Source: an uncultured archaeon
Lineage (GTDB): Archaea; Iainarchaeota; Iainarchaeia; Iainarchaeales; GCA-2688035
DNA: 64,000 bases
Direction of reading: 5' to 3'
Assembly (NCBI GenBank): GCA_964354805.1
Contig: CAYHBD010000035.1
Location: 1 to 64,000 of the forward strand
Of the stretch, positions 13,612 through 64,000 are shown piece by piece (the stretch's first letter is position 1; every line of letters starts with the position of its first letter). The notes under the pieces were generated by a model. It was not told where the DNA came from. It worked only from the letters and a program-made list of their open reading frames with translations, and ran no database searches. Both the position numbers and the translations under genes were made by a program.

Positions 13612-15066
13612 ATGGCAGGGGCAGGCAATGGCGTTGAGCAGGCGGCAGGGCTGCTTGGGTGGAATTTAATTAAGGGAAATGGCGGCAGAATCATTGAAAG
13701 CAACGGGAATTTTTTTATTGGACAGGCAGAAAACGGCGAAAGAAAATATTGCATTAATGCCTTCCCAACCATTTCAATTGAAGAAGCGCGATTTCTGCAC
13801 GATGCACTGGGCGAATTGCAGGAAAGCAGCAAAAAGCTTGGCACCTGCGGCATTAAAAAATTTCTGCGCTACTTCTGCATCAGGAATTTAATTGAACTGG
13901 ACAAAGAACAGGTGCAATACTGCACTTTGCTGCTGCAGAAAATGGTTTTTGGCTTTGGCCCTCTTGACTTTGTCCTAGCAGATGATGAAATTGAAGAAAT
14001 CGCCATAATCGGCACTGGAATGGAAAAGCCTGTACAGGTTTTCCACTGCAGGCATGGCTGGCTGCCTACAAACATCTTCTTCGCTGACAGCAATTCGGTC
14101 AGGGACACGGTGAACAAAATGGCTGCATGCATTGGAAGAAGGCTGACCTTAAACAGCCCAGTACTGAATGCAACTCTTCCGGATGGAAGCAGGCTGAATG
14201 CAGCAATAAACCCAGTTTCATTCACCGGACCAAGCGTTACAATAAGGAAATTCAAGAAAAATCCATTCACCCCGCTGCAGCTGATTGAGAATAAAACATT
14301 CAGCCCAGAGGCAATGGCTTTTCTTTGGGTTGCAATGCAGTGCGATTGCGCTGTCCTGATTGCCGGAAACACCGGAAGCGGGAAAACAAGCAGCCTGAAT
14401 GCACTGTTCAGCTTCGTTCCTGCAAACGAAAGGATTGTGGTTGTTGAAGAAACGCCTGAAATAAGGCTGCCTCACCAGCATTTGGTAAAACTTAATGTTG
14501 TGAAAGAGCAGAACATTGCAATGCAAAACCTGATTGTCGACACTCTGAGAATGCGGCCTGACAGGATTGTTGTAGGCGAAGTGAGAAGCAGCGAGGAAAC
14601 AAAGGCATTCATTGATACATTGCTTGCAGGGCAGGGAAAGGGCAGCTATGCAACCTTCCACAGCCAGAGCGCAAAAGAGGCTGCAAACAGGATGAAGGCG
14701 CTTGGCATTGATGAAACAGACATTGGAGCCCTTGATTTAATTATTGTGCAGAGGCGCTGGAGCAGGGTTGATCCCTCCACCGGAAAAACAGCTGAAATGC
14801 GGAGGATAATGGAAATAACGGAACTGCAGGAAGAAAATGGCGCTGCTTCGTTCAATCCGCTTTTCCAATACGATTTTAGCCAGGACAAGCTGCTGCCTGT
14901 TGGCGAAAGCAAGCGGGTTGCATTGAAGGCAATGAACTGCTTTGCATTGAACAGGAAACAGCTGGATGCAGAGATCGGGCGAAGGGCTGGGCTGCTGCGC
15001 AAAAGTATTGGCAGGCAAATCGGAATTGAAGAATTCTTCCGGCTGGTGAACAGCAAATGGAACTGA
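13612..15066 (+). CDS. VirB11/TadA/CpaF-family secretion or pilus ATPase (module 1)
   Basis: LPDGSRLNA, TIRKF, Walker A GNTGSGKT, VEETPE, LRMRPDRIVVGEVR, ATFH. Confidence 0.93.
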   Translation: MAGAGNGVEQAAGLLGWNLIKGNGGRIIESNGNFFIGQAENGERKYCINAFPTISIEEARFLHDALGELQESSKKLGTCGIKKFLRYFCIRNLIELDKEQVQYCTLLLQKMVFGFGPLDFVLADDEIEEIAIIGTGMEKPVQVFHCRHGWLPTNIFFADSNSVRDTVNKMAACIGRRLTLNSPVLNATLPDGSRLNAAINPVSFTGPSVTIRKFKKNPFTPLQLIENKTFSPEAMAFLWVAMQCDCAVLIAGNTGSGKTSSLNALFSFVPANERIVVVEETPEIRLPHQHLVKLNVVKEQNIAMQNLIVDTLRMRPDRIVVGEVRSSEETKAFIDTLLAGQGKGSYATFHSQSAKEAANRMKALGIDETDIGALDLIIVQRRWSRVDPSTGKTAEMRRIMEITELQEENGAASFNPLFQYDFSQDKLLPVGESKRVALKAMNCFALNRKQLDAEIGRRAGLLRKSIGRQIGIEEFFRLVNSKWN

Positions 15067-17412: not shown

Positions 17413-18012
17413 TCACGCCCGGCGGGTGCGAGTCCGATTGCTGCGCAATCGAACATGCTCGGCTTCGCCTCGCACCGCCCAGTAGAACCATGCAATGTAC
17501 AAAACGGCTATTGTGAAGAAGAGGAATACCCTGAACAGGATGTTGTGGGTGAATTCAATCAAGCCAATGTCGCTGCTGCCCAAAATCAAAATTGCTGCAA
17601 CAAAAATTCTTGCGAAATTGAATGCAATTGCCGCAACAGCTGCAATTGCAGCGCCAAGCAAGCGCTTTCTCCAGTCAATTCCGAGAGATGCAATTATTGC
17701 GCTCACTATTATCAGCAGCTCCATTCTGCCTGTGCAAAGCTCGCTTATCTCAATGCTTTTCCCGTTCTGCAATTCAATCAAAACAGTTTCATTCAAGGCA
17801 ACCGTTCCGCTGCTGCCTGTTGCCTGCAGTGCAGCCAGGACATTGTTCGCAATGAATGCCTCGTGCGCCATGATTGGAAAAAAGGAATCAAACAGCAGGG
17901 ACGCAGCCAAGTAAACCAATACAAAGAATAACAGGAACCTGCCTGTCTTTGACGCATCCGATTTTTCGAAGCGGAAATTCAAGGGCTTTAGAAGATTGCC
18001 AAGCGTGCTCAT
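17413..18012 (-). CDS. Archaeosortase/exosortase family protein
   Basis: Multi-TM protein with ISELCTG (catalytic Cys), FNFARI (Arg) and FTHNILFR (His/Arg). Confidence 0.85.
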   Translation of the reverse strand: MSTLGNLLKPLNFRFEKSDASKTGRFLLFFVLVYLAASLLFDSFFPIMAHEAFIANNVLAALQATGSSGTVALNETVLIELQNGKSIEISELCTGRMELLIIVSAIIASLGIDWRKRLLGAAIAAVAAIAFNFARIFVAAILILGSSDIGLIEFTHNILFRVFLFFTIAVLYIAWFYWAVRGEAEHVRLRSNRTRTRRA

Positions 18013-18069
18013 GTGGAACTAATAATGAAGAGAAAAAATTAAATACTGCTAACCCCCTTATTTTCTGTT

Positions 18070-18444
18070 ATGGCAATATCTCGTGGAAGGGGCCGAAGGC
18101 CATCGTCAATAGTGGTAAAGAAACAAACAGGCAAAGGATACTCTGCTGGCAGGCTAAAGGCGTTCAGGGGAAAATATGCTGCACGGACGGCTGCAAGGGT
18201 ACAGACAGCAATGCGAGAAATTCTTGCTGTTTATCAGCCAGACTGGCCTTTTGTCCCAGTAGATCCGAGAACAAAAAGAAGAACCAGAAGCGGAATCGCA
18301 TTATGGCTGCTCAGGTCTGGGCTTGTAACTGCCTTCGCACACGAAGGAGATATTCTAAAGGTCTTGGAAAAGCTTGTCAGGCAGAGAAAAATCAAGCTGC
18401 CGCAAAAAACCACAAGCGGCGGCGCTCACAAAAAGAAAAAATAG
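18070..18444 (+). CDS. Small very basic protein, paralog A
   Basis: Shares a ~78-aa C-terminal domain with the next ORF (AMREI.AVY.P.WPFVP.DP...IALWLLRSG...LEKLVRQRKIKLPQKTTSGG). Confidence 0.8.
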   Translation: MAISRGRGRRPSSIVVKKQTGKGYSAGRLKAFRGKYAARTAARVQTAMREILAVYQPDWPFVPVDPRTKRRTRSGIALWLLRSGLVTAFAHEGDILKVLEKLVRQRKIKLPQKTTSGGAHKKKK

Positions 18445-18976: not shown

Positions 18977-21259
18977 ATGGAGATTGGCGGATTGAAGGTC
19001 GGAGACTTTGTAGTTAAGGAAGAGGGCGGCAAGCGGCATTTGATTTTCAAGTGCAGCCAGTGCCCTTACAGCGCGAACATTGCTGATGACGTGCACTGCA
19101 GGTTCCACGTAATAACTGTTTTAAGCGAAGTGGAAGCGCAGCTGATTGTTTTAAGCGAAGTGTATGAAAGGGTTCATGCTGAAGAGCAGACTGCAATGCT
19201 TGCAGGGATTGGCGGCTTGATGCAGCGCTTCAATGTTGAAAGCGTCTGGAGCTACAAGCATTTGGGCAAGCCTGAGAAGGAATGCGAGCAATACTTCAGC
19301 GAAAGGCATGACACAATTGTAAAAATCGCCCATGACCTTATTGCATTCGATCCCATTCTTGCTTATTTAACTTTGCTTGGGGAAGCGAAGAAAGAGGCAT
19401 CAAAAAGCGAAAGCGAGGGAAAAGGCTATGCAGCCTGCGCTGAACCATACCTTGAAACACTTTTATACATGCGGCAGCTGTTTGAAGAAACAGCTTTAAT
19501 CAAAAAAACAAAGGACTTTCTGGCAAAGCTGAGGGAAATCCCTGAAACAGCCCAATTGTATCACACGATCCTCGAGGCAGAGGTAAAGCCTGCTTTCATT
19601 GGAAGCAGGCTGATGTTTGAGGAAATGGAATCGCTTGAATTGCTTGATGAATACACCGTAAAAAAAGCAACAGTGCAGATATTCAGCCACCCGAACAAAA
19701 CAGAGAATTTGTATTTCATCAACCCGCCTGAGTACACTCTTGGCCCTGACAGATATTTTGTAATGAGCAAAACCAAGGAAATAGTTGCGGGCTACCAGCC
19801 TGGAAAAACCAGCCTGAGCACTGTTGCAAAAAGCAGGCCATATTTCGAAAGGGTTTATGAGGCAACGATAAAGGATGTTGCAAGGGAAAACAATGTAAAA
19901 TTAGAACCAGAGGAAATAACTGACCTGGCCTCAATTGTTGCAAGATACACTGTTGGCTATGGGATTCTGGAAATTTTGCTAAGCGACAGAAATCTCACGG
20001 ATGTTTATTTGGACAGCCCAATTGGACAGAAGCCATTGTATGTAGTGCATAGTGATTACGGGCAATGCCAGACAAATGTTTTGTACACGCAGGGAGAAGC
20101 AAATGCATTGGTAAGCAAAATGAGGGCAATGTCAGGCAGGCCTTTTGATGAAGCGCACCCAGTGCTTGACCTGAATTTGGCTGATTTGGACACAAGGGCA
20201 GCAGTAATCGGGCCTCCGCTTGCGCCTGACGGAACGGCTTTCGCTTTCAGGCTGCACAAAATAACCCCTTGGACATTGCCTTTGTTCATTGACAACAATT
20301 TCATGGACCCTCTTGCAGCAGGAATGATTGATTTTTTCATTGATGCCCAGGCAACAATGATGATAACAGGAAGCAGGGGCAGCGGAAAAACAAGCCTGTT
20401 GGGAGCGTGCATTCTGGAGATAGCGCAAAACATCAGGATAATTGTGCAGGAGGACACATTGGAGATTCCTGTTCCATACATGAAAAACATCGGTTACAAT
20501 GTCCAGAGGCTGAAGACCCGTTCGCCAATTACCGTGAGCAAAACAGAGACAGAAGTGGCTCCAGAGGAAAGCCTGAGGACAGCGCTGCGCTTGGGCGACA
20601 GCGCTTTGATAATTGGAGAGATTCGTTCAAGAGAAGCCAAGGTTTTGTATGAGGCAATGAGGATCGGCGCAGCAGGAAACATTGTAATGGGAACAGTGCA
20701 CGGTGAAAGCACTTACAGCGTTTGGGACAGGGTTGTGAATGATTTGGGCGTGCCGAACACCAGCTTTAAGGCAACGGATATTGTTGTTGTTGCAAGGCCG
20801 ATCAGGTTTGCCGGCTCGCTTAAGAGAAACAGGAGGCTTGTGCAGATAACCGAAGTGAAAAAGCACTGGACCGAGGACCCTGAAAGGGAAGGCGGCTTCC
20901 TTGATTTGATGCTTTACGATGCAAAAAAGGATTCGCTTTTGTTAATGGAAGACAACTTGAAGGACAGCGAGCTGTTTGAAAAAATCAGCAGGACAAGCGG
21001 GCTTTCAATGAAAGAAATGTGGAAGGACATTGCAATGCGGGCTGACAGCAAGAGTTTTTTGGTTGAATTGAAAAGAAAGCACAATGCGCCAATGCTGCTT
21101 GAAGCGGAGAACTGTGCTGTGGCAAAGAGCAAGCTGCTGCTGCTGAAAGAGCAGCAGATCAGGGAGCAGGGGAAAGTCGACTATGATGCTGTTCTCGGCA
21201 AGTGGAAGTTCTGGGTGAAAAACAGCCTTCTGCCGAGGATAATCGGCGAAACGAAATAG
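18977..21259 (+). CDS. Large VirB11/TadA-family ATPase with N-terminal extension (module 2), 760 aa
   Basis: N-terminal CSQC...CRFH; YTVGYGILEILL; RPFDEAHPVLD; Walker A GSRGSGKT; QEDTLE; LRLGDSALIIGEIRS; MGTVHG. Confidence 0.93.
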   Translation: MEIGGLKVGDFVVKEEGGKRHLIFKCSQCPYSANIADDVHCRFHVITVLSEVEAQLIVLSEVYERVHAEEQTAMLAGIGGLMQRFNVESVWSYKHLGKPEKECEQYFSERHDTIVKIAHDLIAFDPILAYLTLLGEAKKEASKSESEGKGYAACAEPYLETLLYMRQLFEETALIKKTKDFLAKLREIPETAQLYHTILEAEVKPAFIGSRLMFEEMESLELLDEYTVKKATVQIFSHPNKTENLYFINPPEYTLGPDRYFVMSKTKEIVAGYQPGKTSLSTVAKSRPYFERVYEATIKDVARENNVKLEPEEITDLASIVARYTVGYGILEILLSDRNLTDVYLDSPIGQKPLYVVHSDYGQCQTNVLYTQGEANALVSKMRAMSGRPFDEAHPVLDLNLADLDTRAAVIGPPLAPDGTAFAFRLHKITPWTLPLFIDNNFMDPLAAGMIDFFIDAQATMMITGSRGSGKTSLLGACILEIAQNIRIIVQEDTLEIPVPYMKNIGYNVQRLKTRSPITVSKTETEVAPEESLRTALRLGDSALIIGEIRSREAKVLYEAMRIGAAGNIVMGTVHGESTYSVWDRVVNDLGVPNTSFKATDIVVVARPIRFAGSLKRNRRLVQITEVKKHWTEDPEREGGFLDLMLYDAKKDSLLLMEDNLKDSELFEKISRTSGLSMKEMWKDIAMRADSKSFLVELKRKHNAPMLLEAENCAVAKSKLLLLKEQQIREQGKVDYDAVLGKWKFWVKNSLLPRIIGETK

Positions 21260-21398
21260 CTGAGGCGCTGCGTTGAAAAGAGGGAACAAATGAGGCTGAA
21301 AACAATTAAATTTTTGCCATGCCGCTGAAAAATAATTAAAAAGCCTTTTTTCCTCACGGAAAAAAGCATTGGGAAAAATAATTAAACTGGGTTTTTGT

Positions 21399-23690
21399 AT
21401 GCCGATTAAAGAACGAAACATCGGGGCTGCATCCTCTGAGCCAGGCGCTTTGTACAAGGGCATTAAATTAAGCGCTATGGAGATAACAGGGGAAAGCGCT
21501 TTGGTTAAAAAAAAAGTCCCAAGATTTGTTTCATTCTGCAGGGGAATGTACAAGCGCTTTCCTTCCCTTGGAAAGGGAGCAAAGTTCAGCAAGGAAAACA
21601 AGCAGGCTGTTGATTTTCTTGCATGGGACCTTTTGCCAGAAGAGCTGGCTGCAGGAAGCAAGTTTGTCCTTTTTTTTACAATCATTGCAGGCATTGCGCT
21701 AACCTTGCTTGTTTTGTTCACGCCATTAAAAACCATTGTCGGGGGCGCGGTCGGCCCTGCAATGGCACCGCTTTTCGCAATGCTGCCTTTCATAATAATT
21801 GCCCTTGCCGCAACGAATTATGTCCAGCACTATCCGATGAGTGCAGCCAATGTTGAAAAGACAAGGGCACTGACCTATGTGCCTGAAATAGTCGGCTACA
21901 TGATTATGTCAATGAAGCTTGTGCCGAACCTGGAGAAAGCAATTGAGTTCTCGGCAGAGCATGGCAGGGGAAAGATTGCTGAGGATTTCAAAAGGCTGCT
22001 CTGGGATGTGCAGCTTGGCGTATTCAATACAGTAAGCGAGGCATTGGATGACCTGGCTTACAGGTGGGGAAAATTCAGTGATGAATTCAAGCATGCCTTG
22101 ATGAAAGTCAGGGCAAGCGTTCTGGAAACAACGGAATCAAAAAGATACCAGCTACTTGACAGCACAATGGTAACAATCCTGGAATCAATTAAAAACAAAA
22201 TGGAGCAATACGCTCGAGACCTTTCGCAGCCAAGCGTTCTGCTGTTCTATATGGGGGTGCTGCTGCCCCTGCTTCTGATAATTATTCTGCCTGTCGGCAG
22301 CGCTTTCAGCGGCCAGCCGCTTGCAACCCCGCTTGTTTTAATAATCATTTACAACATCGCCATCCCTGCAGTAACCTTTGTTTTCGCAAGGGATGTGATA
22401 AGCAGGAGGCCTCCAACGCAGGATGTGCCGATCATACCCGATAATTTCCCGGGTCTGCCCAAAAAGAACAGCATGAGGATTGGGAAAACCAGCCTTGATT
22501 TAAGGGCATTAATAGCGCTTGTTCTTATAGCTGGAATTGCGTCCAGCTATTTTATTTCAACGCAGGGCATTCCGCCTGTTTCGCTTGTTGGCGAGGAAGG
22601 CATTCAATTGCTGCCAAGAGATAAATCAGTTGCAGAGGTGCTGAAAAACGCTGGCAAGCCATCAGCAGACTGGTATGATGACGACGGGCCTCATGCCAGG
22701 GAATTGATTTCAATGCACGGCGAAAAAGATGGCAGGGCCATGTTCGAGGCAGAGAGGATAGCATTCTTTATTCCGGCTGAAAACGATGTTACACCTTATA
22801 CCCTTATTTTCGGCGTGATGCTGACCTGCAGCTGTTGCATAGCTTTGTTCATTTACTACAGAAACATCTACAAGAGGAAAATGCAGCTGAATGTGATGCA
22901 AATGGAGTCGGAATTCAAGGACAGCCTGTACATTCTTGCCTCAAGAATGGGCGAAAACAGGCCTGTTGAGGAAGCGTTAAAGCATACAAGTAGGTTCCTG
23001 CCTGATTTCAAGATAAGCAAAAGGGTTTTCGGCAGAACAATTGAAAACATTGAATTGCTTGGCATGCCTTTGGAGGCAGCGATTTTTGACCCGAACTACG
23101 GCAGCTTAAAGAATCTGCCGAGCAAAACAATCCAGACAGGCATGCGGATAATGGTTGATTCAGTCGGCCTGGGCGTCAATGTTGCGGCAAGAACCCTGAT
23201 CTCCCTTTCGCTGCAATTGACGAACAACGAAAAAGTAAACCAGACACTGAAAACACTGATAAGCGACACCACAAGCATGATGCGGACAATGGCAGTATTC
23301 ATTGTCCCTGTTGTTTTGGGCGTTACAACAGCTTTGCAGAAAATCGTGATGCTGACACTTGCAACAATCCAAAGCAGCAGCATGAAACAGACACTGGACG
23401 CGCTTAAAAACAGCGACCTGCCAGGGGGCTTAAGCGGCATGACAACAGGCTTTTCCATGGACGCAACGCAATTCGGTTCAATAGTCAAGCCATGGCAGTT
23501 TCTGTTGATTGTTGCCATGTACGTAATTGAATTGGTTATAATAATGGTTTTCTTTACAACAAAAATCGAAGAGGACAACAAGCTTTTGTTCAGCATAAAC
23601 CTGGCAAAAGCCCTGCCTATTGCAGTAGCGATTTTCCTCATAAGCGTACTGGCCTCAGGAACCATTGCAGGCGGCTTCTTCGGGGGATGA
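21399..23690 (+). CDS. Large TadC-like membrane platform protein with duplicated T2SS F domains, ~763 aa
   Basis: Follows the ATPase; ~9 TM segments; two soluble platform domains (PNLEKAIEF...; EFKDSLYILASRMGENRPVEEAL). Confidence 0.85.
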   Translation: MPIKERNIGAASSEPGALYKGIKLSAMEITGESALVKKKVPRFVSFCRGMYKRFPSLGKGAKFSKENKQAVDFLAWDLLPEELAAGSKFVLFFTIIAGIALTLLVLFTPLKTIVGGAVGPAMAPLFAMLPFIIIALAATNYVQHYPMSAANVEKTRALTYVPEIVGYMIMSMKLVPNLEKAIEFSAEHGRGKIAEDFKRLLWDVQLGVFNTVSEALDDLAYRWGKFSDEFKHALMKVRASVLETTESKRYQLLDSTMVTILESIKNKMEQYARDLSQPSVLLFYMGVLLPLLLIIILPVGSAFSGQPLATPLVLIIIYNIAIPAVTFVFARDVISRRPPTQDVPIIPDNFPGLPKKNSMRIGKTSLDLRALIALVLIAGIASSYFISTQGIPPVSLVGEEGIQLLPRDKSVAEVLKNAGKPSADWYDDDGPHARELISMHGEKDGRAMFEAERIAFFIPAENDVTPYTLIFGVMLTCSCCIALFIYYRNIYKRKMQLNVMQMESEFKDSLYILASRMGENRPVEEALKHTSRFLPDFKISKRVFGRTIENIELLGMPLEAAIFDPNYGSLKNLPSKTIQTGMRIMVDSVGLGVNVAARTLISLSLQLTNNEKVNQTLKTLISDTTSMMRTMAVFIVPVVLGVTTALQKIVMLTLATIQSSSMKQTLDALKNSDLPGGLSGMTTGFSMDATQFGSIVKPWQFLLIVAMYVIELVIIMVFFTTKIEEDNKLLFSINLAKALPIAVAIFLISVLASGTIAGGFFGG

Positions 23691-23733: not shown

Positions 23734-24192
23734 TTGAACGAGCAAGGTCAGGAGAGCAGCGGTTTTCGCCTGCTGGTGGAAGCAGTGATGGTTGTCTTTA
23801 TTCTGGTGATAATCTTTGCTGTCATAAGCAAGCTGGACGAAGTAACGCAGCAGGCAAGCGAGAAAAGGCTGTTTGAAGGATTCAGCAAAGCAGTTGACAG
23901 CCCAGATGGCTCTGTAATATTCGAAAAAGACCTTGTTTTAAGGGAGGGCAGTGTTTACAGCAGAACAGCTTTTGCCGAGTCTGCAACCAACATTGAGCCA
24001 GACAGCATTTTAATTCAGGCAAGCAACAACAGCGCCTTTTTGCTGCTCAACAACGGTTCAGCCGTTGAAATCAGGTCACTTGTTTCAACAGATGTATACT
24101 ACCAATGCAAAACAGAGTATGAGGACGGCGAACGCAAGATTAGCTGCACTATCAGCTTTGGACAGGAATTGAAAGAGGGCGAACCAGAATAA
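23734..24192 (+). CDS. Pilin-like protein with class III signal-peptide-like N-terminus
   Basis: TTG start after GAGGCG; MNEQG|QESSGFRLLVEAVMVVFILVIIF; C-terminal Cys pair; directly after the platform gene. Confidence 0.65.
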   Translation: MNEQGQESSGFRLLVEAVMVVFILVIIFAVISKLDEVTQQASEKRLFEGFSKAVDSPDGSVIFEKDLVLREGSVYSRTAFAESATNIEPDSILIQASNNSAFLLLNNGSAVEIRSLVSTDVYYQCKTEYEDGERKISCTISFGQELKEGEPE

Positions 24193-52306: not shown

Positions 52307-55300
52307 ATGGCGCTGGAAGGATTGAAAAACGCTTATTTCAAGGCAGAAGACAAATGGTATGCTGCAACTGAAAGAATAGGCTTAAGCGGCCTTGTTGACA
52401 GGATTGACAAGGTGGTGCCCAGCTTTGCCCTGTTTTTGTTTATTGTTGTTGTGCTGTTGATTGCCGGATTTTTCATGCTGCCTGGCATTATGCCAAGCGG
52501 CGCTGTTTTTTCATTCAAGGCTATTGACGAGGATGGTGCTGCAATAAGCAATGTCACAGTCACTGTTTTAGCTGCTGACGGAACGCAGCTTGCAAGCGAA
52601 AAAACAGGCCCCAGCGGTGAAACAAAGCAGATAACGCTGCCAATTGGAAAAGAGATTGAAATAAAAGCAGAGAAAGAAGGATGGCAGCAATTCAAAAAAA
52701 CCATCACTGTAAGCACGTCAATGCTGCCATACGAAATTACGCTGGCATCAGCCGAAGAGGTAACATACACTATTTCCTTAAAAGACAGCCTGGGCCAGCC
52801 GGTAAGAGAGGCTGTTACATTAACATTCCAATGCAGGAACAGCGCAATACAGCCCTGGAGCGAAACAGTGTCAAGCGGCAGCACAACAGTGACAGAGCCA
52901 GCAAACTGCAATGGTCTGGTTGCAAGCGTTACAAGCAGCAACTTTCAGCCTGTTGAATCAGTGAGCATAACACAGCAAAACCAGAGCATTTTCCTGCTGG
53001 CTATAACAGGGGACAAGGCAACAATAAATGTTGAACTGCTTTTCAACGGCCAGATGGTAAGCGAGGCTGTAAGTGTTCATTTGTTTAAAGACAATGGGAC
53101 AGATGCAGGCATTGGTCCTGTTGAAACAGCAGTTAGCGAAAACGGCAGGGCCGTGTTTTTGGCTGATGCTGGAAAATACTTTGTCAAAAGCAGCAGCTAT
53201 GGCAGCTTTGCCGCAACAAAATCGCAGGCTTTTACAATTGCAGCTGGAGGGCAGCAGACAGTGCAATTGCCATTGCAAAAAAACATTGTTGGCACAATCA
53301 GGCTGAGCATAATTGATGAAAAAACAGGCAAAGCTGTTGGCGATGCAACGGTCTTCCTCAGGCTTGGCAGCGAGGAAATTGACTCAAAGGAAACAAGCCT
53401 GGACAACAATGCATTGGTCGAGTTTCCGGTTACGCAAGACACAACTTATACGGCTGTAGTTGACCACGGCAAATACTGCCTTAAAGTTTTGAATGATGTG
53501 AAAATTGAAGGAATCACAAGGCAGGTGAAATTGAAGCCGTTTACAGCAGAATGCGGCGGCACCTTAAAGGTAAAGGTCCTTGACCAGGATGGAAGGCTTG
53601 TCAAGGGGGCAACAGTTGGATTGTATACAGAAGAGGGCTTCAGCGCTGGTTTTACAACAAAAACAACTGATTTGAACGGAATTGCCTCTTTTGAAAGAGT
53701 GCCAAGCGGAACTTATAAGGCGTTTGCATTCAAGGGAACAGTTGGCAACTGGAGCGAGCCTGCCAATTTCGTCCAAAGAACAGCCGAGAAAACAATCCTT
53801 ACAGTTGTTTTAAACGTTGCAAACGGAACACTTAGCGTAAAGGTTGTTGACGATGAGGGAACGCCGCTGCAATTCGCGCATGTTACTTTTGTTGACGCAA
53901 TAACAAACGAGCCGACCTGTGATAAATTAAAAGAGCCGACCTGCACAGGGACAATGATTGTTGAAGACATAAACGGCATAGTTGAACTGGCTACAAGGGC
54001 TGACAAAAAAGTTTACATTGTTGCAACCAAAGACGGCTATGCAAACTTTACCTCAATCGCGAAACCGGTGCTGCCTGAAGGAACGCAGCAATTTACAGCC
54101 ATTCTGCCCAAAAAAATAATCCAGGGAGAAGTGCAGATAGAGTTGAAGGGAATTTTTAAGAACGGCAAGAGCATAAGCGTGCTTGCCCCAGGCGAAAAAT
54201 ACGATGCCCTGTTCAATGTAAGGATTCCGGCAAACAAAGGATATGACAGAATTGGAATGCATGTAAGGACAGGCACCCACAATGCAATGGAACTGGACAA
54301 AATCGTTTTAAAAGAAATAAATGTGGGCGGCAAAACCGCAATTATTATGGCAACAACATACAGCCAAACAGAAGGCTATGCCATTGACAGCCAGCATTTG
54401 AGCACGGACGAAGGAAAATGGGCAAACATTGAATGGCTTGAAAACACCACCGGTATAATTGAGGTTGCCGCAACAGTAAGGGTGAAGGAAACAGCAACAA
54501 GCGAAGACGAATTGCTGCTTTTTTACAGAACATGGGGCATTGCCAACAGCGCATACAAAAGAGACCCGCTTGACAATGATTTGGGCGAAGCCGAAAGCAT
54601 TGCAGGAAAAGACGCTTTGTATGCAAACGCAAAGCAAAACACTTTCCAGGTCGGGGCGGAAAGCCAGTGCGATGAATTGTTCTGCTTCAGCGCAAACATC
54701 CTAGATGTTGCGGAAAACTTGACAACAAGCGCAACAGATTCATTCAATGCAAAGGCATTCAAGGCATACAAGCTTGGCTTTACTGTTTTAAACAACAGCA
54801 AGCACGAAACAGACACATACATTGATGCTGAGTTAAAGATAGCAAACGAGGATGAAATGCTGCTCATGCAGGACTACAAAATTTACGGCGCCCAAAGCCA
54901 GATGGTTGAAGGCATGACAGAAGGCGCTTCCACTGAATGGGTTGAGGTCGGAAATATTCAGCTTAACAACACGGTTAACGGAACCTTGAACTTCACGCCG
55001 CAAAAATCAGGCAGCGCGCTGCTGTCAGTCCAGATAAGAAGCGGAAACATGATTAGGTTTGACAAAAAAATTGCAATAAACATTGCGGCGGAAAAAGAAA
55101 TGAACGTTGTCATTGCGCCTGAAACCCTGCCGAGCGGAATGGAAACAGACTTGACAGTTACGGCAAAAGACAAGAAAACAGGCGCTGAAATAAATGAAGC
55201 CCTGGTAAAAGTCAAGGACAGGTTTGGCACAGTTGTTGTGCATAAATTTACGAACAGGATGGGCATTGCAGTGCTGCGGTTGCCCCAGCTGCAGCCTGGT

Positions 55301-58300
55301 GAAATAGTGCAGCTGATTGTTGGAAAGCCGAACTATGTTACGTTTGAAAAGGCACTGCAGGTTGACAGCAAGGTCATTGCAGTAAAGCCTGCAACAATCG
55401 GTGTTGCCCTGAACCCAAAAACAAAGGTTGAAGCAGATTCAGCTTTCGACATTGAAAACAAAACAGCGTTTGATTTGCAGATAAAGGGCATTAGATTAAG
55501 CGGAAAAACATTAGGCCTGATTGACGTTGAAAAAGTGAACAACTGGCTGTTTGGGTATGTTAATGAAACAATCAAATCAGATGAAATCAAGGACCTGCAC
55601 TTGAAAACAATGCTAAGCGAAAAAGGAAAGAAAACAAGCCAGAGCCAGCAGATTGAAGCAACGCTTGACATAACTGTTGCAGCAGGCGGCAGCGAATGGG
55701 AGCAGCAGGTGCCGGTGAAAATAAGCATTGGCTTGGGCGGAGAAACAGACGACCCAGGCTGCTTCACTGTTACAAGAAAAGAATGGAAAGGCAGCACTGA
55801 AGGAAACCCGATTGAAATAGAATTCGAACTGCAGAACAACTGCAGCATTGAGGGCGCTCCTGTTGCATTGAAAAACATTTCCGGAAGAATTGAATGGCAC
55901 TCAAACCAAGCAGGAACATTCAGCGTTAGAACTGAAAACAGCGCAATGGAGATAAGAAGCGGCTACAACAAGCAGTTCCTTGCAACAATTGAAAAAGAGC
56001 AGAGCATCAGCGTTGTGCTGCAATTCACTCCGGATGCAGGCGTGAACGGAAAAGGTATTGCGGACATTGTTTTCCAGGCGGAAAACCCTACTGACACAAC
56101 AACACAGGAACTTACGGACAAAATTGCCGCTGAAATCACAGTAGTGAACCTTGTTGACTGCATTGCATTCAGCAAAGACGTAATTGTGATAAAGCCGGAG
56201 AAAACAGATTCATTTGACATTGAGACAATAAACTGCGGCCCTGTGAACGAAATAAGGCTTGAATCAGACCTTACAGTAAGCACCTCAAACTTTAAGCTTG
56301 GCAGCAAGGAAAGCAAAAAAATTGAAGTGCTGGCAGAAAAAAACATTCCCGGCCAATACCCAATAAAAGTGTTTGCCAAAGGAACAGACCAGGTGCAGTT
56401 CAAATTAATCAAAACAATCAGGGCAAGAATCCTGAGCGATAAATGCTTTGAGCTTTCACGCTATGAATTCGATGTATTCGACAACCCTGACAACCCATAC
56501 GACGGCTATGACACAGCAGAATTAATCAACAACTGCTACGACAAGCAACTGCAAATAACAGTGAAATACGATGAAAAGGACTTAATGGAAGCAGCCAAAA
56601 CAGGTGCTCTTGTCGGCTTGGGAATGGGACTGCTCGGCGGGCTTTTAGGCGGCCAGACAGATGCAGCAACCGCCCAAACAGCAGCGACAGGGGCAGCAAC
56701 AGCTGCTGCGCCAGTTAGCCCTAGCACTGGAGGTGCAGCAACAGGGGGAACAAGGGTAATAGGCAGCGGAGGAACAACAGCAATGCCAGCGGGGGCACCA
56801 GCAACAGGAGCAACAGGCGGAGCAGCGGTGGCAGGAACAACAGCCGCTAGCGGAACTAGGGTAATATCACCTAGTCAGGTAACATATGATCTAAGCGGTG
56901 GCGGAACGGCAACAGGAACATATATTACTGTCAATGGGCAATCCCAGTTAATTGATGGATATGGAAATAAAGTTGCAGTTTACACAGAACAGCCAAAAGG
57001 CGTCCTCGATTACCTACAGGTCTGGAACTGGGGCCAGCCAAAAATGGGCTGGGAAGCTGTGCCAAGTTATAGTGTAAACAATTCTACAACAGGCATAGAT
57101 AGAGCAAACCCGGCACCCAGCGCTGCAATCACATCTTCGCCAACTGGCTTTGCTTCAATGTTTGGAGGAGATAGCGGCGGCTTAGGCGGCGGTCTGTTAG
57201 GCAATCTTGTTATGGGGGCAGGCTCGGCAATTCTTGGAAAGCCCTCTTTTGCCGGCTGGGGAATTCAGGGATTCATGATTGGAACTTTGATGGCTTACAA
57301 CAACCAGGAAAGCGGCACTTTCACTTTCCCAACAATCCAAAAGGATGTTATCTTTAAGGGCATTCAGCTGCTGATGCCAGGTGCAACATTGGAAGAGAAC
57401 AAACTGGTTGAAACGCCTTCAACCGATATTATTGCAAGGGATTTGGAAGAAACAAGCACTGAGCCAAAGCCTGAAGACAAGCGCTTGAGCACTGAGATCA
57501 GGAAAATCGGTTTCCTGAATACTACCGGTGTGGTGCAGCCTGATCCAGCAACGCCCTTGTTCAGGGTTCTCAAGGTTGATGCAGAGAGAGTGGAGTACCA
57601 AACAGAATATGATACAAAAGAAAACAAGACCCCAAAAATCAAAGTGAAGGAAAGGAAAGAGAACAAGGAAAGATTCAGGCTGCAGTTCAATTCTTTCAAT
57701 CCATTGCTTGTTGAGCCTGAAATGAGGCCGATTCCGAACTGCAAGCTTGGCACTGTTGTTGGAGTAACTGGACCGAGCGCTGTTCCAAAGGTTTCATTCA
57801 ACTGGGACTGGGGCAGCATTGCAGAAGATGCATGCGTTGAGGGAAATCCGAATTACGTTTACTGCGATGCAACGCAGTTCAGCATTGTTGTTTTGAAGAA
57901 GCTGCAGCGCCTGCAGCAGTTCATCGAAGAGCAAAAGCCCTTTGACTGCCCCACAGCCGCGACGGCAGGCGCGGTTAAAGAGCAGCCCTTGCTTGGAACG
58001 GCATACGATGTTGCAATAACAAAAGTGCAGGCAAACAAAGCCGGCACAGAAGATGCTAACATTGTTGTTTCAATTGAAAGCAATAACGGCGTAAGGATGG
58101 ATGCCGAATTGAGGATTGATTTGAGCAATGCAGCAACAGGCGAGCTGGCGAAAAGCTGCACCAGGGTTTTGAGTGTTTTGAGCAAAACAATTGAAAACTG
58201 CGAATTCAAGAACCTGGGCGAAGGGCAGTATAAAGTGAGGGCAAGCGTTAGCGCAACATTATGCCCGACATGCGAAAACAGCAGCCCGGAAAACGATTCA

Positions 58301-59716
58301 ATTGAAGCAGTGCTTGCAATAGGCTCTGCAGGCGTTGCCGAATGCGATCCTTTCAACACCAAAAGGCTGCCGTTGTTCATTGAGGCAACAGAGGCAGCCG
58401 GAAACTCGGGCTGGAATGCCCAGCAGAGGGAGCAAATCCTTAAAACAATCAAATTCAATGCTTTCCTGATGCAGGATGCTTTCACTGACGATTTCAGGAA
58501 AGACTTTGACATGTTCTGCAAGCAGCAGAGCTTTTTTGACTGCCCAGAATACTATCTGGAAGAGACAGGCCTGCATAAGTTCTTTGCAGACCAAGACAGG
58601 TTCAAGTTCGATTACAGCATGGCTCCGCATGCGCCGGCTGACGCAGGAAAGTACACTGTCACAATAAACATTGAATTCGACAACAAAAACTGGGATTTGT
58701 TTTCAGCCAATGAGCCGAGCGCAAAGATTTCAATTGAAATGGTCAAGCTGTCAACGCCCGAACCTGACAGCCCGTTTTATTACATACCATTTGACGGATT
58801 GATTGGAATTGACAGCATGGACGGCAGGCAGGGCTATGGCATAAACTTCAGGCAGACAAGCGAGGAAACAATCAAGATAAATAACAGCAGGGAACAGCCC
58901 ATTGTAAGCAGCACTATTGCAAACAGCACTCCAGTGCTGGACGGATGGATTGAAGCAGGCAGGAACGACAGTTTCAGGAGGCTGAACCTGGATTCAAGAG
59001 GCATACTGCTTGATGTGAGTGCAGCAGCCGATTCAACAAAGGTTACGCTTAGCCCGAGCTATGCAACGCCTGTTATAATGCAGGTTGACTATGAAAAAGG
59101 AGAGCACGCTTACGGCTTTTACTCAATTGAGGTGGATACAGCCGAACAAATAATTGGAGAGGAAACAATTGGCGGCAGCCCGCAGGCTGCTTTCAGCAAA
59201 ATGATTGCATGGAGCGGAATCGGACCTGTATGCAGGGACTTCGGTGACAGGCCTGTTATGGAGGCATGGCAGGATACATGGGATGAGCATGGAGGCATAA
59301 CAGGCAACCAGCAGTGCGCTATTGGAACAGACATAACCGATTACGGCATTGAATGGTGCAATCCAATCAGGAAGGGCAGCGTTTTCCTGGAAGGAGTGAT
59401 ATTCACTCCGCAGAACAGCACAAGCCTGATGAAAAGGGCAACCTACAGCGATAATATGACTTTGATTTCAGCCGGCAACAAGGGCAGCCAGATTGCATTG
59501 AACGGCGTGCCAGGGATGGCGTTCAACAGCTTTGGCGCAAACGGCATTGATTCTCTGGAGGATGTGCTTGAATTGGTCAAAGACAACAAGGTTTGCCTTA
59601 TAGGGCAGGGAAACAGGATCAGCGCAAAGTTCTTCTGGAATCCAAAAGCAGTTTTGGAAGTGCTGGCTGCGGAAAGAGACAAGGCAGCAGAGAAATGCAT
59701 CAAGATAAAACAGTAA
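52307..59716 (+). CDS. Giant N-terminally anchored surface protein, paralog 3 (2469 aa)
   Basis: YFKAEDKWY...PSF and TM helix; Ig-like repeats; GMHVRTG/YRTW/RDPLD..LG/ALYA; IGLGGETDD; YCDATQFSI; PFDG...GYGI; glycine-zipper insert. Confidence 0.92.
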   Translation: MALEGLKNAYFKAEDKWYAATERIGLSGLVDRIDKVVPSFALFLFIVVVLLIAGFFMLPGIMPSGAVFSFKAIDEDGAAISNVTVTVLAADGTQLASEKTGPSGETKQITLPIGKEIEIKAEKEGWQQFKKTITVSTSMLPYEITLASAEEVTYTISLKDSLGQPVREAVTLTFQCRNSAIQPWSETVSSGSTTVTEPANCNGLVASVTSSNFQPVESVSITQQNQSIFLLAITGDKATINVELLFNGQMVSEAVSVHLFKDNGTDAGIGPVETAVSENGRAVFLADAGKYFVKSSSYGSFAATKSQAFTIAAGGQQTVQLPLQKNIVGTIRLSIIDEKTGKAVGDATVFLRLGSEEIDSKETSLDNNALVEFPVTQDTTYTAVVDHGKYCLKVLNDVKIEGITRQVKLKPFTAECGGTLKVKVLDQDGRLVKGATVGLYTEEGFSAGFTTKTTDLNGIASFERVPSGTYKAFAFKGTVGNWSEPANFVQRTAEKTILTVVLNVANGTLSVKVVDDEGTPLQFAHVTFVDAITNEPTCDKLKEPTCTGTMIVEDINGIVELATRADKKVYIVATKDGYANFTSIAKPVLPEGTQQFTAILPKKIIQGEVQIELKGIFKNGKSISVLAPGEKYDALFNVRIPANKGYDRIGMHVRTGTHNAMELDKIVLKEINVGGKTAIIMATTYSQTEGYAIDSQHLSTDEGKWANIEWLENTTGIIEVAATVRVKETATSEDELLLFYRTWGIANSAYKRDPLDNDLGEAESIAGKDALYANAKQNTFQVGAESQCDELFCFSANILDVAENLTTSATDSFNAKAFKAYKLGFTVLNNSKHETDTYIDAELKIANEDEMLLMQDYKIYGAQSQMVEGMTEGASTEWVEVGNIQLNNTVNGTLNFTPQKSGSALLSVQIRSGNMIRFDKKIAINIAAEKEMNVVIAPETLPSGMETDLTVTAKDKKTGAEINEALVKVKDRFGTVVVHKFTNRMGIAVLRLPQLQPGEIVQLIVGKPNYVTFEKALQVDSKVIAVKPATIGVALNPKTKVEADSAFDIENKTAFDLQIKGIRLSGKTLGLIDVEKVNNWLFGYVNETIKSDEIKDLHLKTMLSEKGKKTSQSQQIEATLDITVAAGGSEWEQQVPVKISIGLGGETDDPGCFTVTRKEWKGSTEGNPIEIEFELQNNCSIEGAPVALKNISGRIEWHSNQAGTFSVRTENSAMEIRSGYNKQFLATIEKEQSISVVLQFTPDAGVNGKGIADIVFQAENPTDTTTQELTDKIAAEITVVNLVDCIAFSKDVIVIKPEKTDSFDIETINCGPVNEIRLESDLTVSTSNFKLGSKESKKIEVLAEKNIPGQYPIKVFAKGTDQVQFKLIKTIRARILSDKCFELSRYEFDVFDNPDNPYDGYDTAELINNCYDKQLQITVKYDEKDLMEAAKTGALVGLGMGLLGGLLGGQTDAATAQTAATGAATAAAPVSPSTGGAATGGTRVIGSGGTTAMPAGAPATGATGGAAVAGTTAASGTRVISPSQVTYDLSGGGTATGTYITVNGQSQLIDGYGNKVAVYTEQPKGVLDYLQVWNWGQPKMGWEAVPSYSVNNSTTGIDRANPAPSAAITSSPTGFASMFGGDSGGLGGGLLGNLVMGAGSAILGKPSFAGWGIQGFMIGTLMAYNNQESGTFTFPTIQKDVIFKGIQLLMPGATLEENKLVETPSTDIIARDLEETSTEPKPEDKRLSTEIRKIGFLNTTGVVQPDPATPLFRVLKVDAERVEYQTEYDTKENKTPKIKVKERKENKERFRLQFNSFNPLLVEPEMRPIPNCKLGTVVGVTGPSAVPKVSFNWDWGSIAEDACVEGNPNYVYCDATQFSIVVLKKLQRLQQFIEEQKPFDCPTAATAGAVKEQPLLGTAYDVAITKVQANKAGTEDANIVVSIESNNGVRMDAELRIDLSNAATGELAKSCTRVLSVLSKTIENCEFKNLGEGQYKVRASVSATLCPTCENSSPENDSIEAVLAIGSAGVAECDPFNTKRLPLFIEATEAAGNSGWNAQQREQILKTIKFNAFLMQDAFTDDFRKDFDMFCKQQSFFDCPEYYLEETGLHKFFADQDRFKFDYSMAPHAPADAGKYTVTINIEFDNKNWDLFSANEPSAKISIEMVKLSTPEPDSPFYYIPFDGLIGIDSMDGRQGYGINFRQTSEETIKINNSREQPIVSSTIANSTPVLDGWIEAGRNDSFRRLNLDSRGILLDVSAAADSTKVTLSPSYATPVIMQVDYEKGEHAYGFYSIEVDTAEQIIGEETIGGSPQAAFSKMIAWSGIGPVCRDFGDRPVMEAWQDTWDEHGGITGNQQCAIGTDITDYGIEWCNPIRKGSVFLEGVIFTPQNSTSLMKRATYSDNMTLISAGNKGSQIALNGVPGMAFNSFGANGIDSLEDVLELVKDNKVCLIGQGNRISAKFFWNPKAVLEVLAAERDKAAEKCIKIKQ

Positions 59717-62800: not shown

Positions 62801-64000
62801 AACAAGGTAACGCAGTTCTTTAAAAACAACACAAACGGACTTGGCAAAGCAGCATTTGATTTGCCTGCACTGCAGCCCAGCACAAAAATCGTCATTGAGG
62901 TGGAAAAGCCTGGCTATTATGCAGCTCCGCTTGAGCTGTTTGTTGACAGCAACATACTGCGCTTTGACCCAAATGAAATACGCTCGCAGCTTGACACAAG
63001 AGGCATGAAAGAGCAGACATTTGCTGTTGCCGTCCAGAACATGACAGGCATGGATGTTGAAATAAAAAACATTGCATTAAGCGGGCAGTTCAAGGGCCTG
63101 CTTGACCAGGCAACAATGCTGAATTTCACAAAACAATACATCGGCACAAAAATCAAGGCAGGGACCAGCATTACAAGGGAAATGTTCAAAACAAAGCTGA
63201 GTGAAAATGCAAAACAGCTGCTGTTGAGGAATGAAAAACTTAACGGGCAATTTATCATAACAGCAACAAACAATGAAAGAACAATCACATGGGACATGAT
63301 TGTGCCATTGCAGGCTGCCATTTCAATAGGAGAACTGCCAGACAATGCACCCTGCATTGTTGTATCAAAACAGGAATGGGACAGTTCAACCGTTGAAAAC
63401 ATTGCAACAATAGAGTTTGAAGTGCAGAACAGCTGCATGTCAGGCAGCAACTTTGTTGAGCTGGACAACCTGCAGGCAAAAATGGAATGGCAGGGAGATG
63501 CAATAGGAACAGTTGAACTCACAATAATTGAAGCAGAAACAGGCGCAAGCAACAGCGCTGTTTTACGCCCGGAAATTTGGACACAGTTGTTCAAAACAAT
63601 AAGGCCTGATTCAACCTATTACGCAATGCTGAGCTTTACCCCAAAGCAGGGGCATATTGGAGAAACAGCGAAATTCACTGTTTTGATTGACGGCCAGATT
63701 GCAACAGGCGCAGGCTTGACCTTTGTGGGAGCAAAGCCAGAGGCAATTAATTCAACAATCAAGGTAATCAACCTGCAGCAATGCATCAAATACCAGGACG
63801 CGGAAAACATTGTGAAAATGGCCGGAGGGCAGAATGACACAAAGTTCACAGTTGACACAAGCGATTGCGGCAATATTGCTGTATCAATCGAGTTATGCAG
63901 GCAGAACCCGAACTGCGCCGGCGGGGCAGAGGGCGGAATTATGGTAACACCGCTTTCCTTTACATTAACCAAGGACAATCCTTCAAAAGAAATAAGCGTT
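59885..64000 (+). CDS. Giant N-terminally anchored surface protein, paralog 4 (partial, >1372 aa; not in the ORF track)
   Basis: Hand translation: MGLHDLYTAMEDKWYGVLDKIDNHLPIYKIIDPIDKAVPSFVLFIAVIAIIAAFLIL...; later AGLHFRVG, RGTSFTPPAGY, HYRAW, RAPADSALGSAESTAEKQALYA; frame still open at base 64000. Confidence 0.9.
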   Translation, partial: MGLHDLYTAMEDKWYGVLDKIDNHLPIYKIIDPIDKAVPSFVLFIAVIAIIAAFLILPMLAPVATQVRVTVLVANDEDNPLEGVTVDYTIEGTINSAKTNAEGKAQFNAPFESSVGISIPDTTIKGVEYAGATMEITLGKESTESKKITLTKKAAAIERTIIFQNSAGERITGETIRIRLSCQNPVAKLLKTDAIDEDKDGEIKVTEPADCRLLQATIIAPAKFKQKSYNISNSTQTLQLEELDIAKGAVRVKIKDESGNLLTETNFSVRLLETDGSLVNEKYSRNYGEAFFTEVKIGTYNASVSDDAGDYALATAEGIEVKVNETTQADVRVSKTIKAKITVQVIDKASKKAIANATVKLLNADDRVLDEKSTGSEAKSIVFSLSDTLTYTLQASHADYLYEEVKVEKAAADTAITIELEKLTALNSGRVEVKVVDEENKPVHKAKVKLRFLESGMLVPIEPVFTDTNGIAQFKGVKAGSYYAYAEKFPASGDNKTEGKEIDIRETTRFKIEMFIGKTMVTVKAVDEDSKQVPEAEAEFFAESGESLGKIALTDGTGKFELKADKRVFVIVSHSDYMPVQTMPQQLFPSQKIEFVAKMEPRLVLGDPKVQFEGVFDSAGKQVQMLKAGNKYIVKFKLSIPSSGNFRQAGLHFRVGDEQFSANDPLVINDIIAGGIDAPLRGTSFTPPAGYADDEQNLTEGDAKWANIFWNGLQPMNYYFGFEIRVKSQVMPYTKLSMHYRAWAIDESGDYIRAPADSALGSAESTAEKQALYAEKYTVQFLEGSPAKCEEDFCYSGESILDEDKGLFVIEPYQLNAGAPHKLTFDIINNSERQYSSAKLYITTVGLTIDSYKIKNADAREISAALLATKKIEEIDLGEFTKGKSINSIVHFNASAIGNASIEIKIIADARTVFLRTITAAVESEKQMHISIDPALIAAYIPNRVQISASEDIGGQTFGVDNALVRLTITHPNKVTQFFKNNTNGLGKAAFDLPALQPSTKIVIEVEKPGYYAAPLELFVDSNILRFDPNEIRSQLDTRGMKEQTFAVAVQNMTGMDVEIKNIALSGQFKGLLDQATMLNFTKQYIGTKIKAGTSITREMFKTKLSENAKQLLLRNEKLNGQFIITATNNERTITWDMIVPLQAAISIGELPDNAPCIVVSKQEWDSSTVENIATIEFEVQNSCMSGSNFVELDNLQAKMEWQGDAIGTVELTIIEAETGASNSAVLRPEIWTQLFKTIRPDSTYYAMLSFTPKQGHIGETAKFTVLIDGQIATGAGLTFVGAKPEAINSTIKVINLQQCIKYQDAENIVKMAGGQNDTKFTVDTSDCGNIAVSIELCRQNPNCAGGAEGGIMVTPLSFTLTKDNPSKEISV

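Follow-up and report, generated by a model that had tools for sequence, protein, structure and literature searches.

The 64,000-nucleotide stretch analyzed here (the window), which comprises bases 1–64000 of the 86.8-kb contig C35 in the 1.38-Mb, 49-contig genome of an uncultured archaeon (G000), is the core of a cell-surface gene island that is conserved across the phylum Iainarchaeota (Diapherotrites). The island combines a "system 1" type IV filament (T4F) machine, a lineage-specific T4F machine built around a 760-residue ATPase (ATPase2), a single archaeosortase (artX), and an operon-like array in which four giant paralogous proteins, gA to gD, enclose the gene of a pilin, p558, in the order gA-p558-gB-gC-gD. 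Among type IV filament loci that carry accessory adhesins, the island is a new variant. Judged from sequence, the giants, the embedded pilin, and the adjoining lineage-specific motor point to an undescribed attachment organelle, in which the working link between the giants and the motor is our proposal. A literature search found no papers describing giants of Iainarchaeota or their N-terminal module. Gene content was assigned by open reading frame (ORF) calling and by Pfam and NCBIfam scans of the window, which recovered the elements listed in an initial annotation of this DNA, namely two secretion ATPases, three platform genes, pilin-like genes, an anchored protein of ~1.6 kaa (thousand amino acids), and an archaeosortase on the opposite strand.

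Giant paralogues and their embedded pilin

The giants account for ~3% of the genome, as they do in almost all relatives sampled in the phylum, with four encoded in tandem in the window and a fifth, gE, on contig C9. Their mutual identity of 22–28% marks them as true paralogues, in agreement with the initial annotation, which had counted at least four. Homologues were sought in 101 genomes of the order, 45 of them of high quality, and in 151 genomes of the phylum, 55 of them of high quality. With the gC ectodomain as the query, giants were found in 93 of the 101 genomes of the order and in all 45 high-quality ones, usually as 4–6 tandem copies, and on this basis they are real genes. The same query gave no match in the sister orders; where it failed, a profile of the conserved N-terminal motif (N-motif) finds 1–2 large proteins per genome. 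ATPase2 occurs in 97 of the 101 genomes of the order, mostly as a single copy and with 55–84% identity. Across the phylum, ATPase2 is present in 139 and the N-motif in 148 of the 151 genomes, and each is present in every one of the 55 high-quality genomes. The N-motif tag and ATPase2 are signature core genes of the phylum.

Each giant consists of a conserved N-module, one hydrophobic helix, and then ~2,400 extracellular residues of Ig-like β-sandwich. The N-module spans ~65 residues including the hydrophobic helix, and it begins with a predicted cytoplasmic helical leader of ~35–55 residues that ends in P-(S/A)-F. The helix follows directly, is ~22–25 residues long, and terminates in Pro or Gly; small residues after this Pro/Gly turn are frequent but inconsistent. 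The consensus is roughly M..L..YF.LEDKYY.L.DKID..IP.YK..D.IDK.VPSFALFL, with Y10, E14, Y18, P38, and F40 invariant. The initial annotation held that the giants are not ordinary pilins, which the analysis supports. The N-module, with its junction D-K-x-(V/I)-P-(S/A)-F, departs from the rules for class III signals and precedes long Ig-like ectodomains. A Pfam scan of the N-termini at E ≤ 10 returned noise and no family. When the N-motif profile was run against 1.84 billion representative proteins, 1,024 cluster representatives matched, 598 of them at E ≤ 1e-10. Among the 150 matches listed, all but one place the motif within the first ~110 residues, and the proteins listed are either 2.2–3.2 kaa long or shorter, the latter being probably truncated gene calls. 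A profile search of G000 confines the motif to the five giants. Two further giant ORFs in the genome, on contigs C42 (13497–23918, 3,474 residues) and C8 (51023–61153, 3,377 residues), lack the N-motif and have no BLAST similarity to the giants.

The ectodomains contain CarboxypepD_reg, Big_1, SpaA, and MG-like Ig folds, and the giants are acidic (isoelectric point, pI, ~4.9) with 15–27 N-glycosylation sequons each. Compared with orthologues from 20 genomes, gC retains ~40% identity over its whole 2,469 residues except at residues ~1450–1620, an indel-rich and hypervariable loop that is bracketed by two Gly-zipper (GxxxG-rich) hydrophobic helices at residues 1429–1448 and 1625–1644. Paired GxxxG-rich helices at residues ~1425 and ~1570–1700 recur in many of the homologues scanned. 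An AlphaFold2 (AF2) model of gC residues 1270–2469, with a mean pLDDT of 74, is almost entirely β-sandwich; the variable loop, which connects the two helices, is disordered in it. Foldseek searches with this model returned generic Ig-like, CARDB, and MSP matches, among which no enzyme, toxin, or lectin stood out, and when the gA and gC sequences were searched against solved structures, no match was found.

To examine the relationships among the giants, 29 of them were compared over their first 1,000 residues by a quick maximum-likelihood search; the tool flagged long branches in the resulting tree. The gA clade is recovered with 100% and the gB clade with 92% SH-aLRT support, and a gC clade has gD and gE beside it. 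Each clade spans several families of the order, and the giants of the sister orders fall outside, a pattern indicating that the orthogroups gA, gB, and gC/gD predate the radiation of the order. Furthermore, the order gA-p558-gB-gC-gD is identical in G001, G016, and G002, and likewise in G030, G050, and G055 within the stretches fetched. The giants are ancient, non-redundant paralogues in a fixed order, which fits the hetero-oligomeric structure that the initial annotation had suggested; the assembly itself we infer.

Between gA and gB in every genome examined lies p558, even where the array has left ATPase2, as in family f3 of the order. On the strength of its predicted structure and its prepilin signal, we call p558 a modular type IV pilin. 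The junction (K/R)(G/A)↓F(T/N)LFTAL(V/L) is kept in the seven orthologues examined, those of six other genomes among them. The AF2 model, computed from a 38-sequence alignment (pLDDT 87.6, pTM 0.81), has a 74-residue N-terminal helix (residues 3–76), an α/β head, and a further module. The likeness of the head fold to solved pilins is weak (Z ≤ 4.7). Foldseek found nothing at E ≤ 0.001, and an all-against-representatives structural search gave Z scores of 3.4–4.7, which by the tool's own warning prove little. Even so, the best matches in that search are enriched in type IV pilins and pseudopilins, which make up 10 of the first 43 rows, namely a Thermus competence pilin, GspI/EpsI, PilA4/5, PilX, PilV, PilE, and FimA, aligned to model residues ~37–222.

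Island layout, filament machines, and archaeosortase

In the relatives of G000, the island opens with ATPase1 and its two platform genes (plat1a and plat1b), followed by PAC2. Beyond these comes the ATPase2 operon, read in the opposite direction, with p1650 at its distal end, then a four-transmembrane (4-TM) protein, one or more Zn-ribbon genes, six pilins, platform 2, and ATPase2. On the other side of ATPase2, artX and the giant array read away from it. This layout is seen in full in G001, G015, and G016, and in the fetched parts of G030, G050, and G055, and the ancestral arrangement is one in which the ATPase2 operon and the artX-giant array are transcribed divergently. The window differs from G001, G015, and G016 by a single inversion reaching from PAC2 to artX (17413–32716), as a result of which ATPase2 and the giants share a strand in G000. 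The inversion also explains why ribK and PAC2 interrupt the region in G000, an interruption that the initial annotation had correctly noticed. The features are collected in Table 1.

Table 1. Features of the surface gene island in the window, with the fifth giant on contig C9.
Feature	Position	Strand	Product	Basis
ATPase1	13612..15066	+	FlaI/TadA-type secretion ATPase, 484 residues (module 1)	PF00437, E 2.6e-39
plat1a, plat1b	15057-16268, 16368-17345	+	Two split TadC/FlaJ platform genes, 403 and 325 residues	PF00482
artX	17413..18012	-	Small archaeosortase/exosortase-family protein, 199 residues	TIGR04178, 31.6 bits (cut-off 23)
Basic pair	18070-18444, 18466-18882	+	Tandem small, very basic paralogues, 124 and 138 residues, pI ~11.7	Mutual phmmer E ~3e-34
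ATPase2	18977..21259	+	Secretion ATPase, 760 residues	PF00437, E 8e-17 on residues 403-609
Platform 2	21369..23690	+	Nine-TM TadC-like protein, 773 residues	PF00482, E 2.4e-4; nine hydrophobic segments
pil1 (p175)	23734..24192	+	Small class III pilin; probable start TTG 23734	N-terminus MNEQGQ↓ESSGFRLLVEAV...
p182	24344..24892	+	Four-TM membrane protein	TM prediction; orthologues in ATPase2 operons of G016 and G001
p1650	ORF 24834-29786, probable start 24990	+	Secreted S-layer-like protein, ~1,600 residues	Signal peptide and C-terminal anchor
ribK	29888-30538	+	Housekeeping insert	PF01982
Basic protein	30677-31531	-	Housekeeping insert, unknown basic protein, 284 residues	No TM segment
PAC2	31901-32716	-	Housekeeping insert	PF09754; same island place in all relatives examined
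gA	32997..41624	+	Giant A, 2875 residues	N-motif and TM, then Ig-like/CarboxypepD_reg repeats
p558	41826..43502	+	Modular type IV pilin, 558 residues	Prepilin signal, AF2 model
gB	ORF 43841-51982; conserved Met 43892	+	Giant B, 2713 residues (~2696 from the conserved Met)	N-motif, paralogy
gC	52307..59716	+	Giant C, 2469 residues	N-motif; two Gly-zipper helices
gD	From 59876 (or 59885) to contig base 67402 beyond the window	+	Giant D, ~2508 residues (~2505 from 59885)	
gE	Contig C9 160523-167218		Giant E, fifth copy	Paralogy, N-motif

The best NCBIfam match of ATPase1 is FlaI, but neither ATPase reaches the cut-off of the archaellum FlaI equivalog NF058587 (550 bits; ATPase1 232.9, ATPase2 135.8) or that of the bindosome ATPase BasE, NF053672 (1000 bits; ATPase1 138.9, ATPase2 71). 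Two platform genes directly follow ATPase1. A two-gene platform is a hallmark of the archaeal T4F "system 1" (Epd-like) (PMC13705601), and the assignment of module 1 to this system rests on the platform layout. ATPase1 and its two platform genes form an orthologous trio that is kept in G001, G015, G016, G101, G102, and G146. PF00482 exceeds the Pfam cut-off in plat1b alone; plat1a and platform 2 are sub-threshold, yet both are multi-TM proteins with conserved orthologues. Contig C8 also holds another ATPase1-type module, at 25.7–29.4 kb.

ATPase2 carries a Walker A motif (GSRGSGKT, at residue 465), an Asp box, and a His box, preceded by a lineage-specific N-terminal domain of ~300 residues. 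The closest solved structures are Archaeoglobus fulgidus GspE2 (2OAP), CpaF, and FlaI, none of which spans residues 1–298. The N-terminal 300 residues retrieve 329 proteins whose names are Diapherotrites-type or unspecific, save one labelled Micrarchaeota. Orthologues of platform 2 (31–56% identity) always follow ATPase2, family f3 being the exception. The ancestral machine comprised ATPase2, platform 2, six class III pilins, a Zn-ribbon membrane protein, the 4-TM protein, and p1650. Of the six pilins, p175 is the one left in the window. It is the orthologue of the first pilin in the G015 and G016 operons, and its N-terminus, MNEQGQ↓ESSGFRLLVEAVMVVFIL, has a QGQ↓ junction; the six operon pilins of the relatives have KGQ or RGQ junctions. 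The genes pil2–6 and the Zn-ribbon membrane protein gene have been relocated to contig C30 (18804–23435), among housekeeping genes. Three PF01478 matches above the cut-off, two on contig C16 (6073–6891 and ~79.6 kb) and one on C9 (159437–160519) and none in the window, represent the class III signal (A24) peptidases, so that the genome contains all components by which a T4F core is defined (PMC13705601): ATPases, TadC/FlaJ platforms, class III-signal subunits, and an A24 peptidase. The basic pair directly upstream of ATPase2 shares a C-terminal LEKLVRQRKIKLPQKTTSGGA tail and matched no family; the two proteins are possibly DNA-binding regulators.

Several side observations concern ATPase2. A paralogous module on contig C30 (74671–82336) encodes an ATPase2-like protein (583 residues, 44% identity) and a platform 2-like protein, followed by about six small pilin-like genes, and matches at the level of this module (41–44% identity) occur in ~10 of the 101 genomes of the order. 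In a dozen or more genomes (G042, G087, G026, G100, G065, G008, G053, G036, G096, G035, G092, G032, and others), the ATPase2 orthologue is ~1,270–1,300 residues long and contains an intein with a LAGLIDADG homing endonuclease (PF14528 and PF14890), inserted at query residues ~489–495, within the conserved Asp-box motif QEDTLE. The open frame in G065 is longer still, at 1,835 residues. In the complete genome G030, the ATPase2 orthologue (C1:439030–441278) is broken by an in-frame TAA or frame change at residues ~240–250; recoding, an error in the sequence, or decay to a pseudogene could each account for this.

The archaeosortase artX reaches no named exosortase or archaeosortase subtype (XrtH scores 40 against a cut-off of 86). 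It is present as a single copy per genome and lies between ATPase2 and gA in most relatives. The protein p1650, whose gene closes the ATPase2 operon throughout the phylum, ends in LPSLPEQP followed by a TM segment and a basic tail, and the LPSLPE signal is kept in the orthologues of G015, G016, and G001. A large, C-terminally anchored "S-layer-like" protein inside a type IV pilus (T4P) locus is a known pattern (PMC4858521). An ESM Atlas search with p1650 gave no usable match. Four secreted proteins encoded elsewhere in the genome (C9 171202–180769 and C47 32044–33519) end in P(V/T)PEL(N/S/D)E(L/F)LLPL... with a TM segment and a basic tail. From these C-termini, artX is most likely a general enzyme that sorts p1650 and the C9/C47 P-x-P-E-L proteins by a PEP/PEF-CTERM-like signal. 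No C-terminal TM segment or sorting signal was found in the giants, and a dedicated role for the archaeosortase in handling them was rejected for this reason. The basic protein between ribK and PAC2 was likewise considered as a sortase and rejected, because it has no TM segment. Just upstream of ATPase1 lies the gene of a further surface protein (9639–13478), an acidic protein of 1,279 residues with a signal peptide, 23 N-x-S/T sequons, and a C-terminal TM anchor, for which no homologue was detected in the fetched island stretches of the relatives. Near the start of the contig, an IS200/IS605-family transposase is encoded on the minus strand (572–1015; NF033573, 108 bits).

Proposed coupling of the giants to a filament machine

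We propose that the giants would assemble into one hetero-oligomeric surface fiber or adhesion organelle, and that p558 would couple this fiber to a T4F machine, most probably the neighboring, divergently transcribed ATPase2 machine. Two models fit such an arrangement, namely the bacterial minor pilins that present PilY1 at a pilus tip and the Sulfolobus bindosome, which displays class III-signal binding proteins. The N-module would then be the handle by which a giant is recognized or extracted, and one of the three A24 peptidases might cleave it at (S/A)↓F. Three observations suggest the filament connection. First, p558 is an integral part of the array and stays with it when the array moves. 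Second, P-(S/A)-F is invariant at the position where a prepilin peptidase would cut, exactly at the cytoplasmic edge of the helix, and is followed by F-a-L-F, which resembles the F-(T/N)-L-F of p558. Third, the divergent pairing with ATPase2 outlasts the divergence of the ectodomains: G007 and three genomes of sister orders (G101, G103, and G146) encode an N-motif protein 0.5–2.7 kb away from ATPase2 and in divergent orientation, so that the pairing holds in sister orders whose ectodomains are unrecognizable, and the whole island is kept in G101 and G146. Altogether, ATPase2 and a giant lie within 37 kb of each other on one contig in ~36 genomes. A T4F-coupled fiber, resembling either a tip complex or a bindosome and assembled by the filament machine, is our tentative preference, and we consider its chances to fall slightly short of even.

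The giants may instead be free-standing fibrils or adhesins that are exported by Sec and held by an N-terminal type II signal anchor. Their adjacency to the ATPase2 operon would then reflect inherited synteny or shared regulation, p558 would be merely another pilin encoded there, and the N-module would be a cytoplasmic oligomerization or tethering domain. A number of observations weigh against filament coupling, and those on synteny, dispersal, the leader, and the pilin comparison speak directly for free-standing fibrils. As to synteny, the control gene polB was tested in five genomes and in four of them lies ~5–13 kb beyond the distal end of the array, as it does in G000 and G101 too, and PAC2, uppS, and the geranylgeranyl reductase gene (GGR) are also kept in place across orders. 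Since these housekeeping flanks are equally syntenic, linkage alone proves little, and conserved synteny was rejected as functional proof after the polB control and the housekeeping flanks of G101 had been considered. Nor does phyletic co-occurrence help, because the giants and ATPase2 are both core genes of the phylum, so that their joint presence cannot test dependence; it was dropped as uninformative. As to dispersal, ATPase2, artX, and the array lie 370–440 kb apart in family f3 (G002 and G034). In G002, ATPase2 stands alone at 709 kb, without adjoining platform and pilins, artX is found at 73 kb beside a gene that in other genomes borders the array; the array itself, intact and including p558, lies at 233–276 kb. 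In G102, the island is present without giants, which are on other contigs. Both f3 and G102 thus keep the two gene sets though unlinked, which shows that the linkage between ATPase2 and the array is ancestral and mostly retained, but dispensable.

The leader raises further difficulties for coupling. It is far longer, at 35–55 residues, than known class III signals, it has Pro rather than Lys or Arg at position -2, and K-G is found in the gA group only, three residues upstream of the junction. The hydrophobic helix that follows is of TM length and ends in Pro or Gly. In an hhalign comparison, the best alignment puts the S-F-a-L-f of the giants in register with the G-F-N-L-F of p558, as coupling would have it, but at 2% probability, a match that is not significant. 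Three fates of the N-terminus may be considered from its sequence, namely an uncleaved anchor, cleavage by signal peptidase I after the helix, and class III cleavage. Further points against coupling come from the genome at large. Six T2SSE ATPases are encoded in it, so p558 could use another machine, and in G000 pil2–6 have moved off the ATPase2 operon. Only 4 nt downstream of gE, on the same strand, lies the gene of a divergent, 361-residue A24 prepilin peptidase (C9 159437–167218 for the pair; PF01478, 32 bits). It was considered as a dedicated giant-processing enzyme and rejected, because its weak orthologues in G015 and G016 are near a different ATPase and far from the giants.

Against free-standing fibrils stand the invariable place of p558 within the array, with which it moves, the position of the invariant P-(S/A)-F, and the persistence of the ATPase2 adjacency in sister orders despite total divergence of the ectodomains. 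Taking both sides together, we regard free-standing fibrils as quite possible, yet somewhat doubtful. The link to the ATPase2 module that the initial annotation drew, and the survey of synteny and co-occurrence it suggested, have therefore led to a divided result: adjacency in ~36 genomes, sister orders included, and the embedded pilin support the link, whereas polB is equally linked and the unlinked genomes and the uninformative co-occurrence do not. A more specific form of the coupling proposal treats the N-module as an extended signal of a new kind, either class III or T4F-targeting, through which the ATPase2 machine, with its N-domain, large platform, six pilins, and p558, would extract the giants from the membrane and mount them on a filament as the attachment organelle of the phylum; we consider this form unlikely.

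It is improbable that the giants and p1650 form the main envelope scaffold, a substitute for an S-layer or sheath that covers the whole cell rather than a localized organelle. For it speak the universal presence of the giants in the phylum, the purifying selection that acts evenly over their full length, and an acidity and richness in sequons that recall the surface glycoproteins of archaea; p1650 with the archaeosortase also resembles the pairing of S-layer and ArtA. However, five different 2.5-kaa subunits with ~20 tandem Ig-like domains look fiber-like rather than lattice-forming, no S-layer-specific fold stood out in the structure search with the gC model, and the sister orders have only 1–2 copies. 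Most improbable of all is a contact-dependent pore or fusion device in which the central part of gC and gD, with its Gly-zipper helices and variable loop, would insert into a host membrane: although paired GxxxG-rich helices do recur in many homologues, flanking the hypervariable, disordered loop, no likeness to a pore-former or fusogen stood out (a single EFF-1 row in Foldseek, with a TM-score of ~0.1, is noise), the helices could equally serve as zippers for oligomerization or cross the membrane of the cell itself as additional TM segments, and host dependence is not established for the phylum, whose member Ca. Iainarchaeum may live independently (PMC6349945). The penetration structure envisaged in the initial annotation has only these two helices to point to, and the dependence on host contact from which it reasoned is not established.

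Relation to known systems and significance

T4P loci of archaea that also encode accessory adhesins and S-layer-like proteins have been described previously (Makarova, Koonin & Albers 2016, PMC4858521). Like those loci, the island brings together an ATPase of the VirB11/FlaI type, a platform of the TadC type, several pilins with class III signals, a large, C-terminally anchored S-layer-like protein, and large putative adhesins. The Iainarchaeota island differs in that its "adhesins" are 4–5 paralogues of ~2.5 kaa with an N-module of their own and without a Pfam match when scanned, and in that ATPase2 has a ~300-residue lineage-specific N-domain. Cargo with class III signals is considered to "functionalize" T4F machines, and variable N-domains of the ATPases track the subsystems (PMC13705601).

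In the Sulfolobus bindosome (BasEF/BasABC), non-pilin cargo with an N-terminal hydrophobic segment is displayed by means of an ATPase, a platform, and pilin-like proteins, and this arrangement is similar to the one proposed here. Bindosome cargo, however, measures ~50–70 kDa and has short canonical [KR]G↓ leaders, whereas processing of the giants is a candidate event. A second resemblance is to the PilY1/minor-pilin tip of bacterial type IVa pili and the GspK-I-J pseudopilus tip of type II secretion, in which a large adhesin is encoded with the minor pilin that presents it; like GspK, p558 is the largest pilin and has no Glu at +5. PilY1 is ~1 kaa long and has an ordinary signal peptide, in contrast to five giants that each have a TM helix, in a setting with no outer membrane or secretin. 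Very large surface proteins exported by bacteria, such as those with ESPR (autotransporters and TpsA), YSIRK, or KxYKxGKxW signals, have a conserved N-terminal extension before the hydrophobic core. The module of the giants is longer than these and ends in P-(S/A)-F. In genome economy, a parallel is Giant1–5 of Apilactobacillus kunkeei, an organism living in close association with others, which devotes several percent of its ~1.5-Mb genome to five consecutive genes for extracellular proteins of 3–8 kaa (PMC12863079). The proteins are bacterial and unrelated in sequence, and the abstract of that paper mentions no link to pili; the parallel is an analogy only.

These results define a phylum-wide parts list, which comprises five giant orthogroups, the modular pilin p558, ATPase2 as the signature motor, and artX together with its probable substrate, and also a 65-residue N-terminal tag that picks out the giants in any metagenome. 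DPANN archaea have been reported rarely to show ordered T4F loci (PMC13705601); the relatives of G000 have a fully ordered one, and the ordered loci of Iainarchaeota qualify that recent statement. Iainarchaeota are uncultured, and the parts list bears on how these archaea touch surfaces or other cells. If the N-module is indeed a signal for a filament machine, the known size of T4F cargo would be extended by an order of magnitude, and if a T4F machine mounts the giants, archaea of a whole DPANN phylum would possess a system that depends on T4F to display or secrete giant proteins.

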